From a virus: a stretch of 13,958 bases of DNA. Every line of letters starts with the position of its first letter. Position 1 is the stretch's first letter. Of the stretch, positions 3,001 to 6,000 are shown piece by piece. The DNA is taken from UHGV virus genome UHGV-0194130. One strand, given 5' to 3'. The position numbers are program-made.

Positions 3001-6000
3001 AACTGGCATGTGGCAAAAGCAATTGCTCCATCTGATAGATACCCATCTGAAAATTCAACAGACGAAGAATACCTTGATCCTATACACGATTGAGTTCTCG
3101 GTTTAAAAATAGATCCGCCTTTAATATAACAATCCGCCGCATGCTCAACCTTAAGAGAGTCTTCCCCTGAATTGTAAGAAGTGAATTCTGTGCCCCTCAC
3201 GCTTGCACTGTACACACATTCAAGGGAAATATTAGCATTTGATATATGAACCCCATTAACCCCAAATTGAGATCCAGAGCCAGAAACAAGAACTCCACAA
3301 ACAGAGCCTCCATTTACAATCAAATTGTTTGCATCCCAAACTACGCAACTACCACATTGTGAATCAGGGTAGTATCCACCTCCGATAATGAGTCCGTAAT
3401 CACCATCTGTTTCAACAGCAACATTTTTTATGCTGTATATATTTGATCTAAATTGTATTCCTTTTGTTGTTTTTATTATGGAATTTATTGGTTTTGCCAC
3501 AACCCCGTTAACCGGACCTGAAATTATACCATTGTGACTCATATCCAATGTTAATACATTTCCATCCTTGGAAATTATCATCGCTCCACATGAAATGTCT
3601 CTCCTGCCAGAAAGTATACAATATTTACCAACATGAAAATTATCTGCATTCTGAACAGAAACTTTAAAAATACCAGTCAACACATCATAAGAAACATCAT
3701 ATACATTAACAGGACTATAATCCACACCCAATATATTCAGAGGAATATTATCAAACTCATCATAATGTGAATAACCATCAGGAATGTGAATATACTGCCC
3801 GTATTCTATCTGTGATCTAAGCTGATCGGGATCGTACTTCAGCACATTAGGAAAATAGAACTGCAGAGCGCCGTACGCATCATAAACAGCCATAGAATGG
3901 CCTTGCACAGTTACAAATTTGGCAATCTGTCCGTTATATACAGGGTAACCAGCAGCGTTAATGATGATTGGTTGCGAAACAGGAACGTGAGAGCCGTCTT
4001 CGTTCTCCACATAAACCTGAATCTGGTTTTCAGGGTTTACCGGGTCAGTGTCAATTTTACCGATATAAATTTTGCCATTGGCTACGGCTTTAAAAGAACG
4101 CGCCATAGTGAAGAGTTGCGAAGGCATACTCACTACAACATTGGCTGTAATGTCTGTCATTTTATTTGCTCCAGATACAAGGAATCACCGAAGCATGGCT
4201 ACGGTTGGCATTTGTTACATACCGAAATGGTACGATTGTTGATTTGTACAGTAGGTTTTACGATGCCATTCCACCCATTTGGTGAGGCATTGATGATGTA
4301 CAGCAAATACGATGAGGCGCAGTTCCACTTGAGGCTTACGCACGAGTTGCACGCTAAGATTAAGCAGCGTGCAAAAATGAATAACAGGTCTATCAATTCC
4401 GAAATTGTGGCTACGATGGAAGAATCACTCTCCAAACCATCACCTGTAAGCGGGTATCGTGATGAAGAAGAGAGACTGGCCTCATTAATCTCGGAACGAG
4501 TAAAAGAAGTTGCGGCTGAAATTCTAAGGAAAGAAAAAACCCGCGATTAAGCGGGTTTAGTTTTCATTATAAAATGTTACGCCACATTTGAGCCATGTAG
4601 CAGGTGTTGTAGTGCTTTAACGCCTTCAGAATTGTAGCGGAACGCCTCTACCTGTTTGCTGGAATGCGCCGATTTATCCAGGAAGAACTTCCCGTACTGC
4701 TCAGTTTTGAGGTTGTTTGCGTTAGCAATGCGACCAATCTTGTTGGCCGTTACTCCAAGCTGCTCTGCAACCTCCCCTGCTGAGTAGTAATGCTCTTCTA
4801 TTGCCGGAAGAGGTATTGCATTAAAACCAACGAGCGGGTTGATTATGCTTGCTGCAGCAGTCTGCTTTGCTTCCGGCGCAAGATTTGGCATCAGATCGAA
4901 CAGATTGGTAACAGCTTCAACCGTCATTTTCAATGTTCGCGCTTGACGATACTCAACAAGTCCACTCGCTGATTTACCGCTTTTAATGTGCGCTTCTTGC
5001 ATACTTTCAAGTTGGTCTACCAGTGAGCGGCGAACGGCTTTTGACTCGCGAGCGGCAACTCGCAATGCTTGCTTGATTGACATCTCAATGATAACCATCG
5101 AAGTTTTGTTCGCTTTTTGCACTACACTTTTTGTGTAGTGCTCTCCATCCAATTCATCTTCAATTTTCTCGATGAATTTGTTATTACGAACCTCCGGCTC
5201 ACCGCACTGTCTACGAGCCTGATTTACCATCTCAAGCAGGCGCTGGCTGTCAATGGTTTTATCCGTGACAACGGATCCGATGTTTGCTACATTCTTAAAA
5301 GTCATTAGGCATTCCTTATGTGGTAGTAAGGGTGTGACATAGGCCGCCAGCAGCACACTGGCGGTTTTCTTTTTGCGCCGTCCGGCGCACCAATCAATGA
5401 ATCCATTCCTCGCCGCGCAGTTTTGCCAGCATTGGCTGAGCGTTCTTTACGACAAAATTGTTGGTATCAAGATTCTTCATTTCACGAAGAAGTGATTTCT
5501 TGGTTTCTTCTGACATGTAGCGAGTCTCATATGCAATATCGTAAATCCTTCCAGAAAGCTCAGAACCAATTTGCTTCATTCCTGGGTAGATGTGTTTGCA
5601 CATTTGTTGACTCTTCTCCATCCACAATTGTAAGTAGCAGAGATTAACCAGCTCTTCGTCAGTAAACTGTTTTGCAATCGGTGAGCATTCTGCCTGCCGA
5701 TCCAAAATATCCAGCACCCAGCGGCGGAACTCTTTAGCCTTGGGCGTAGAAGCAAACATCGCCACCAAGTGAGCGCCTCGGAGCGAGTAAACTCTGACCG
5801 ATTTGTTACGTAAGCTATTGTTTATCCCGTTGACCTTCATATTGAGGGTCAATGACATTGAGTCGGAAAACTCGTCAGCATTACGGGCATAAATTTGGCT
5901 GATGGCATCAGTTTTTTTATAGCCGAGAGCCTTAGCTAGTTCGGTGGAGGTAAACCAGATAGATCCACCCTCTGTTACAGGGTTAAAGGTGAATCCTTGG

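Follow-up and report, generated by a model that had tools for sequence, protein, structure and literature searches.

What is controlled by an Mnt-type repressor whose gene lies directly beside the tailspike gene of a prophage? The question is raised by mnt85, a gene for a protein of 85 amino acids (aa) in the UHGV virus genome UHGV-0194130. The stretch analysed, hereafter the window, is 13,958 nucleotides (nt) long and is the right arm of a P22-like (Lederbergvirus) Escherichia coli prophage. The gene lies in the 'ant moron' between genes 16 and 9, the most variable stretch of the P22-like late operon, of which only the P22 version has been studied. The ant moron has been described as hypervariable, and the published genome papers do not settle whether the solitary mnt next to gene 9 is functional in phages L, ST64T and ST104 (Villafane 2008, PMC2629481; Zaworski 2020, PMC8022706). 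For the E. coli lineage studied, the comparative evidence gives a partial answer, and it replaces a vague annotation ('Arc family DNA-binding protein', three times) with specific testable predictions.

The explanation favoured, which as a whole is given about an even chance of being correct, is that mnt85 is the resident mnt of the ant moron and encodes a locally acting, autoregulated repressor that would insulate the tailspike from non-late transcription. Within it, the roadblock step is held with less confidence than the rest. In this view the gene belongs to a conserved unit that runs from the terminator through mnt and Pmnt with its operator to the leader and coding sequence of the tailspike. 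The lineage would be one without P22's arc-ant operon between mnt and gene 9, with a self-contained immunity-I-type cassette beyond mnt instead. The prophage would thus carry a stack of two modules, and each module would have a repressor-operator pair to itself. That the modules are separate is supported by the ant operon having its own strong promoter and palindrome.

Identity, conservation and position of mnt85

The mnt85 open reading frame (ORF) has its stop at 4550, ATG codons at 4293 and 4296, and a ribosome-binding site, GGTGAGG, at 4281-4287. One of the two ATG codons is probably the start, because relatives have Arg for the first Met or an upstream in-frame stop. A public PGAP version of the gene is 95 aa long and starts at 4263, inside the predicted -10 element (TACGAT, 4259-4264). 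This longer start is unlikely; in relatives of the L073 type a stop codon closes the upstream frame.

Mnt85 matches the Pfam Arc family (PF03869, E 3.2e-15), the P22 Mnt family (PHROG 795, 6.6e-33) and PDB entry 1MNT (9.4e-16, residues 7-78). It is 45% identical to P22 Mnt over 73 residues in BLASTP, an alignment that covers both the ribbon-helix-helix (RHH) domain and the C-terminal helix. In the C-terminal helical domain the alignments to P22 Mnt and 1MNT (BLASTP, HMMER) extend through residues 76 and 74; the Pfam model of the Mnt C-terminus (PF11423) gave no match to a C-domain of the window type. The other Mnt-like protein of the prophage, the 127-aa product of mnt127, combines an Mnt-like N-domain with an unrelated C-terminal region of 75 residues. 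It aligns with P22 Mnt over the 42-residue RHH domain only, and with Mnt85 (38% identity) again only in the RHH domain.

An AlphaFold model based on a multiple sequence alignment (MSA) has a predicted local distance difference test (pLDDT) score of 81 and consists of an extended segment (residues 9-16), two helices (17-29 and 34-47) and a long C-terminal helix, predicted at 58-83 with a pLDDT of about 90. The top PDB fold matches of the model are all RHH proteins, namely Arc (1PAR and 1BAZ, target-normalised template modelling score 0.74-0.80), AmrZ, FitA and CopG; given the small size of the protein, the Foldseek E-values are weak, and the information lies solely in how the RHH proteins rank. 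A single-sequence AlphaFold model (pLDDT 72) rendered the strand region as helix; it was poor and was superseded by the MSA-based model. Mnt is a tetramer that binds cooperatively to one operator, and its C-terminal coiled coil (residues ~52-82) is responsible for tetramerisation. By analogy, Mnt85 presumably forms a tetramer as well.

The tailspike gene is divergent from mnt85, with a spacer of 132 bp, and the nearest antirepressor gene (4577-5305, or to 5356; - strand) is convergent with it. The preliminary description of this DNA had called the 85-aa ORF a P22-Mnt-like gene, closer to P22 Mnt than is the second protein, with an RHH fold to be expected, divergent from the tailspike, convergent with ant and closed by a bidirectional terminator. 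Each of these statements agrees with the results: the Pfam, PHROG and 1MNT matches, an alignment over both domains rather than one, the predicted RHH topology with its fold matches, and the orientation of the genes around a terminator hairpin at 4537-4558.

Against divergent relatives, codons 2-52 of mnt85 gave ratios of nonsynonymous to synonymous divergence (dN/dS, Nei-Gojobori) of 0.008-0.07 at a dS of 0.9 to more than 2. These values indicate that the DNA-binding domain is under strong purifying selection, which argues that mnt85 is not a decaying remnant.

Linkage to the tailspike is similarly constant. In 79 of 80 viral contigs with Mnt85 relatives (64-100% identity), the tailspike head-binding domain is encoded on the opposite strand, about 130 bp upstream. 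In ST64T, Gally, Sf101, VSe13 and JEP4, mnt is the divergent neighbour of the tailspike gene; in P22 the two are separated by arc-ant. Searching for the operator-promoter pattern added 120 further stretches, 118 with the window type of mnt to the right. The tailspike linkage can be judged in the 115 of these 120 loci that reach far enough to the left, and in 101 of the 115 a distance of 47-72 nt separates the operator from the tailspike start. Among the remaining 14, most have a 180-aa HNH-AP2 homing endonuclease inserted between operator and tailspike, and one has an antirepressor remnant. The region was found in 152 of 5426 complete E. coli genomes, strain HS among them. These counts identify the tailspike-divergent position as the standard site for the window mnt lineage; the added element is the distal repressor-arc-ant cassette. 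The earlier view of mnt85 as an unusual second mnt in an odd place is reversed by this result.

The HNH-AP2 insertion is present in about 11 related loci, on the same strand as mnt (e.g., L019, 3316-3858, and L104, 7458-8000).

Operator, promoter and DNA specificity

The candidate operator of Mnt85 is the 17-bp pseudo-palindrome CATACCGAAATGGTACG (Table 1). Its position and core are homologous to P22 Omnt (AGGTCCACCGTGGACCT) and to the ST64T sequence (AAGACCACGGTGGTCTT), and it stands in the same register as P22 Omnt. The 132-bp spacer of the window can be aligned with the ST64T-type spacer; its part next to mnt also aligns with the mnt-arc spacer of P22. In P22, ST64T and the window alike, a single base separates the operator from an ATTGnnn -35 element, which is followed 17 nt on by TAyGAT or TATCAT, the Pmnt homologue. 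The Pmnt-like promoter of mnt85 is thus the positional homologue of P22 Pmnt (TTGAGA-17-TATCAT). No second Mnt85 operator was found in the window at up to three mismatches or as TACC-N5-GGTA, nor in the arc/mnt127 intergenic region, and the whole JEP4 genome gave only a chance-level match with three mismatches.

Promoters were scored with a position weight matrix (PWM) of approximate consensus frequencies supplied by the analyst, which is blind to activator-dependent or non-sigma-70 promoters. As controls, P22 Pant scored 16.0 and P22 Pmnt 13.6; the null median was 8.0. The Pmnt-like promoter of mnt85 has the top rightward score (8.5). It is weak by consensus, and its position is kept in all variants.

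The three RHH proteins of the prophage have different recognition strands: QFHLR in Mnt85, RFNIR in the 127-aa protein and SFQLR in Arc. Operator type tracks recognition-strand type in 159 of 161 non-redundant loci (two exceptions), although the loci from L089 onward were gathered by operator pattern, so that the association is partly built in and the informative point there is that every operator is adjoined by a QFHLR gene. QFHLR proteins go with TACCnAAAnGGTA (148 loci), QFNLR proteins with GACCACnGTGGTC (7 loci) and HFNFR proteins with GTCCACnGTGGAC (4 loci). The covariation persists despite swaps of the C-domain. In loci L077-L081 an ST64T N-domain is joined to the window C-domain, and in P0078 a P22-type N-domain is joined to a C-domain identical to that of the window.

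The palindromes TACCGAAATGGTA (4220-4232) and TTGGTTCTAGAACCAA (6307-6322) are each unique in the window, one per repressor, and the latter co-occurs with an RFNIR-type repressor in related loci. They are the candidate operators of the two repressors in the intervals, 4161-4292 and 6280-6390, in which operators had been suspected. Mnt85 and the 127-aa repressor very likely differ in DNA specificity, and the covariation assigns specificity to the N-terminal strand, not to the C-termini. The preliminary description had proposed two operator specificities resulting from different C-termini. The first half of this proposal stands, as there are two RHH types with their own unique palindromes; the second half does not, as the C-termini shuffle independently and the N-terminal strand specifies.

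The independently shuffling C-domains also show that mnt itself contains a joint of mosaic recombination, which lies in the linker KPSPVSGYRD between the DNA-binding and oligomerisation domains (4440-4470 in the window). The window type of C-domain is accompanied by a downstream antirepressor cassette in 51 of 54 loci, versus 3 of 96 for other C-domain types. Immunity-I modules can evidently stack in tandem, with exchange at the joint within the mnt linker.

What Mnt85 may control

Under the favoured explanation, Mnt85 would bind 4218-4234 as a tetramer and autoregulate Pmnt. A pure autoregulator, without any further output, would not be expected to be conserved so strongly. The bound protein would sit 57 bp upstream of the tailspike ATG. 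In the lysogen, operator occupancy, convergent mnt transcription and the shared terminator would together shield the tailspike gene from transcription that is not late-antiterminated, e.g., transcription escaping from the ant operon. Transcripts of the late operon, once modified by the phage late antiterminator, would read through. That late transcripts cross mnt85 in antisense was already pointed out in the preliminary description; the geometry holds, but it is generic in the group, since P22 late transcripts cross sieA, orf59a and mnt. A moron that modulates tailspike levels was speculated on earlier by Villafane et al. (PMC2629481).

Several points weigh against insulation as the selected function. 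The Pmnt-like promoter scores close to the null median (8.5), and it is by homology with P22 that mnt85 is taken to be transcribed in the lysogen. The roadblock may be redundant, since the ant operon and the tailspike are already separated by an intrinsic terminator. Phages with mnt only (ST64T) have little upstream non-late transcription, yet the pair is conserved in them; the selected output may therefore be something else. Taken together, the low dN/dS, the covariation of operator and recognition strand, the tailspike linkage and the loss of Pant argue for a repressor that in this E. coli lineage is functional and binds locally, and that is no longer an antirepressor switch.

It is doubtful that Mnt85 or its transcript acts in trans on other phages. 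In that case the prophage protein would bind the same operator (TACCGAAAYGGTA) on superinfecting heteroimmune relatives, or the mnt transcript would be antisense to their late mRNA. The effect would be a reduced tailspike supply or a blocked Mnt-controlled antirepressor, i.e., superinfection exclusion or immunity with specificity types. Mnt of a P22 prophage reportedly acts in trans on incoming phage, according to work of Susskind and Botstein. At least four recognition-strand types, three of them with matched operators here, form the diversification pattern of immunity specificities. In BTP1, a transcript expressed in the lysogen and antisense to the gene 16-tailspike region is reported to give phage-specific superinfection immunity (Owen 2020, PMC7067206). 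Targets of the ant kind are few, as essentially none of about 118 loci with the window operator type has an intact ant operon under the operator. The mnt85 transcript would stop at 4558 and be antisense to non-coding late RNA only, and it encodes a strongly constrained protein, so that it is not merely an RNA.

That Mnt85 represses a tailspike-directed promoter homologous to P22 Pant is improbable. In that case tailspike synthesis would not depend on the late operon where Mnt is missing, and it would be silenced in the lysogen. This gives concrete form to the suggestion in the preliminary description that the arrangement could couple tailspike expression to immunity status, a suggestion that is speculative. 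The operator is exactly where P22 Omnt overlaps the Pant start, and in the relic locus L071 an antirepressor fragment lies between the same promoter region and the tailspike, which indicates that a leftward operon was formerly under the control of this type of mnt. Secondary transcription starts occur around the tailspike gene of the P22-like prophage BTP1. Against these points, the leftward elements homologous to Pant are decayed in every lineage with mnt next to gene 9: the -35 reads ATGGCA or TCGGCA, and the -10 reads CAAATC, TAAATC or TATATC, the final T always missing. No tailspike-directed sigma-70-like promoter was detected in the window spacer, where the best PWM candidate scored 4.45 (null median 8.0, P22 Pant 16.0), and a consensus scan of 4161-4600 found no promoter on the - strand. 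Because the best leftward PWM scores are low in all variants with mnt next to gene 9 (4.45-6.2), Mnt85 is unlikely to gate a sigma-70 promoter of the tailspike, and the suggested coupling to immunity status is left with no such promoter on which to act.

A wider proposal, which is quite improbable, makes the Mnt85-operator pair a sequence-specific gate on tailspike supply, with several specificity types, that serves the resident prophage and acts on superinfecting relatives sharing the operator. Clamped on the DNA 57 bp upstream of where the tailspike starts, prophage Mnt85 would block transcription into the gene, possibly together with its antisense transcript. If this were true, heteroimmune relatives would yield tailless, non-infectious particles, and an immunity-I repressor would provide a new kind of superinfection exclusion.

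It is hardly credible that mnt85 has no present function and is decaying as what is left of an earlier immunity-I region. In favour of this reading, Pant, arc and ant, with which it was originally associated, are missing or decayed, and a remnant is one of two options raised in the literature for phage L mnt. Against it, dN/dS stays at 0.01-0.07 across lineages whose synonymous divergence is saturated, the conserved operator co-varies with the protein, the frame is intact in more than 150 loci, and the region occurs in the 152 E. coli genomes mentioned above.

The tailspike mRNA carries a conserved leader hairpin. Alignment A1 comprises 19 diverse leaders and has 95.5% of its cells paired, versus 25-57% in slid controls. 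Two pairs have compensatory changes, and G.U wobbles assign the structure to the tailspike-sense RNA. In P22, two copies of the hairpin flank the spacer from ant to gene 9. Transcript processing or stability is one guess at its role.

The distal cassette, the prophage setting and known systems

The stretch 4577-7148 has the organization of a self-contained immunity-I-type cassette, with an RHH repressor divergent from an operon that starts with arc and encodes an antirepressor (Table 1). Its Pant-like promoter has 10 of 12 consensus matches and, with a PWM score of 14.5, exceeds the 99th percentile of the null. The whole promoter is bracketed by a 9-bp inverted repeat, ACCAACTTG at 6301-6309 and CAAGTTGGT at 6346-6354, which may be a second operator, e.g., for Arc. 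Within the cassette, a candidate sar-like RNA covers the ATG (5303-5305) and the Shine-Dalgarno sequence of the 242-aa antirepressor, with the geometry of P22 sar. Its predicted fold has -25.8 kcal/mol (z -2.1); an Rfam search for sar or other RNA families gave only a meaningless match to a long non-coding RNA (E 0.66). The gene at 6771-7148 encodes a hydrophobic N-terminal segment and, by analogy of position, may be an exclusion gene expressed from the prophage.

Table 1. Features of the window, UHGV-0194130, in order of position.
Feature	Position	Strand	Details
Tailspike gene	2502-4160	-	P22-type head-binding domain, residues 1-113; Pfam Head_binding 2.4e-66
'Ant moron' (variable region)	4161-7148		Between gp16 and tailspike
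Conserved leader hairpin of tailspike mRNA	4188-4204	-	CCGUAGC-CAU-GCUUCGG, one U.U mismatch; 16 nt upstream of Shine-Dalgarno GGAGC (4168-4172)
Candidate Mnt85 operator	4218-4234		CATACCGAAATGGTACG, 17-bp pseudo-palindrome; core TACC-N5-GGTA at 4220-4232 (TACCGAAATGGTA)
Pmnt-like promoter of mnt85	4236-4264	+	-35 TTGTTG 4236-4241, 17-nt spacer, -10 TACGAT 4259-4264
mnt85	4293-4550	+	Full-length Mnt-family repressor; RHH ~residues 9-50, linker KPSPVSGYRD, C-terminal helix 58-83
Bidirectional intrinsic terminator	4537-4558	both	Common to mnt85 (+) and ant operon (-); 8-bp stem, 5 G-C pairs, T-rich tails on both strands; inverted repeat I3
Second antirepressor	4577-5305	-	242 aa from ATG 5305 (ORF to GTG 5356); PHROG 1726 'anti-repressor' 7e-101, full length
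Candidate sar-like antisense RNA	5265-5376	+	TG-extended promoter GTGACA-17-TACATT (5265-5293), two hairpins, terminator 5341-5367 and U run
Antirepressor	5394-6116	-	Bro-N and P22AR_C (Pfam PF02498, PF10548); PHROG 245 'anti-repressor Ant' 5e-63
Arc homologue	6106-6279	-	57 aa from ATG 6279; Pfam Arc 1.2e-11; GGAGG upstream
Candidate operator of 127-aa repressor	6307-6322		TTGGTTCTAGAACCAA, perfect 16-bp palindrome over -10 and start region
Pant-like promoter of cassette	6307-6348	-	-35 TTGACA 6348-6343, 16-nt spacer, -10 TAAATT 6326-6321
mnt127 (distal RHH repressor)	6391-6774	+	127 aa; Pfam Arc 1.1e-16; PHROG 3178 2.6e-59, full length
Gene of 109-125 aa, function unassigned	6771-7148	+	PHROG 5962, 2e-61; position of sieA in P22
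gp16	7149-9269	-	
gp14, gp7, gp20	Between tail needle and gp16, in that order	-	
Tail needle	11587-12540	-	Sf6-type knob
gp10	12540-13958	-	

The late operon of the prophage is on the - strand. A conserved 98-aa gene (PHROG 1443, function unassigned; 2212-2508, - strand) lies directly 3' of the tailspike gene and overlaps its stop; JEP4 has one too. An IS200/IS605-family TnpB gene with OrfB_IS605 and Cas12f1-like TNB domains (1-1131, - strand) reaches the window edge. It adjoins a PEBP/YbhB-like host gene (1240-1716, + strand) just beyond the prophage end. No tRNA gene was found in the window.

The layout with three RHH genes occurs in about 24 of 132 non-redundant loci, a tblastn-based count of loci with arc and a second RHH repressor, and in E. 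coli MDR_56. In loci L211 (2542-6397) and L212 (2802-6398), both from E. coli prophages, the interval from gp16 to the tailspike contains a tandem of two complete mnt-arc-ant modules, with four RHH genes. Their proximal module is P22-like and their distal module is the cassette of the window. In both, an RFNIR-type repressor, arc, the Bro-N antirepressor and the 242-aa antirepressor are followed by a terminator and a proximal mnt with the window type of C-domain. Unlike in the window, where the proximal module consists of mnt and operator only, the proximal mnt has a P22-type N-domain and its own arc-ant. The window looks like the layout of these two loci minus the proximal arc-ant.

P22 immunity I comprises mnt, Pmnt/Pant, Oarc/Omnt, arc, sar and ant. 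Shared with the window are the RHH N-domain with C-terminal helix (45% over 73 residues), a 17-bp pseudo-palindromic operator in the same register by the mnt -35 element, and an mnt that opposes the late operon in the gene 16-gene 9 interval. The recognition strand differs (HFNFR in P22, QFHLR in Mnt85), as does the operator (GTCCACCGTGGAC in P22, TACCGAAATGGTA in the window). P22 Omnt overlaps a strong divergent Pant that drives arc-ant, whereas the divergent gene in the window is the tailspike, without a functional-looking Pant or a divergent arc-ant.

The mnt-only morons are closer in arrangement. ST64T, ST104 and Para1 have mnt and one gene of unassigned function only, and phage L, reported as 99.9% identical to ST64T, has only an mnt homologue and the short orf62 (Villafane 2008, PMC2629481; Zaworski 2020, PMC8022706). 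As in the window, mnt of ST64T is divergent from gene 9, its 135-bp spacer aligns with the 132-bp spacer of the window, and the gene 9 leader, hairpin, operator position and Pmnt are common to both. Unlike Mnt85, the proteins of L, ST64T and ST104 are QFNLR types with GACCACnGTGGTC and about 51% identity, and no antirepressor cassette lies distal to mnt.

Phages and prophages of the same type (JEP4, VSe13, Sf101, IME10, the E. coli HS prophage and MDR_56) have Mnt85 orthologues of 62-98% identity with the same operator and tailspike adjacency; in MDR_56 the 127-aa repressor, arc and antirepressor are the same as well. They differ in the distal cassette. In the same slot JEP4 has a cassette with a helix-turn-helix (C2-like) repressor, Rha and KilA, VSe13 has a short antirepressor fragment only and Sf101 has none.

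BTP1 offers a parallel in its transcript STnc6030, which the prophage expresses in antisense orientation to the late operon, in the stretch from the gene 16 homologue to the tailspike, a geometry that the window fits (Owen 2020, PMC7067206). STnc6030 is reported to be non-coding, about 500-786 nt long, and to overlap the coding sequences of gene 16 and the tailspike, whereas the mnt85 transcript encodes a constrained protein (dN/dS 0.01-0.07) and would end at the terminator before reaching any essential gene.

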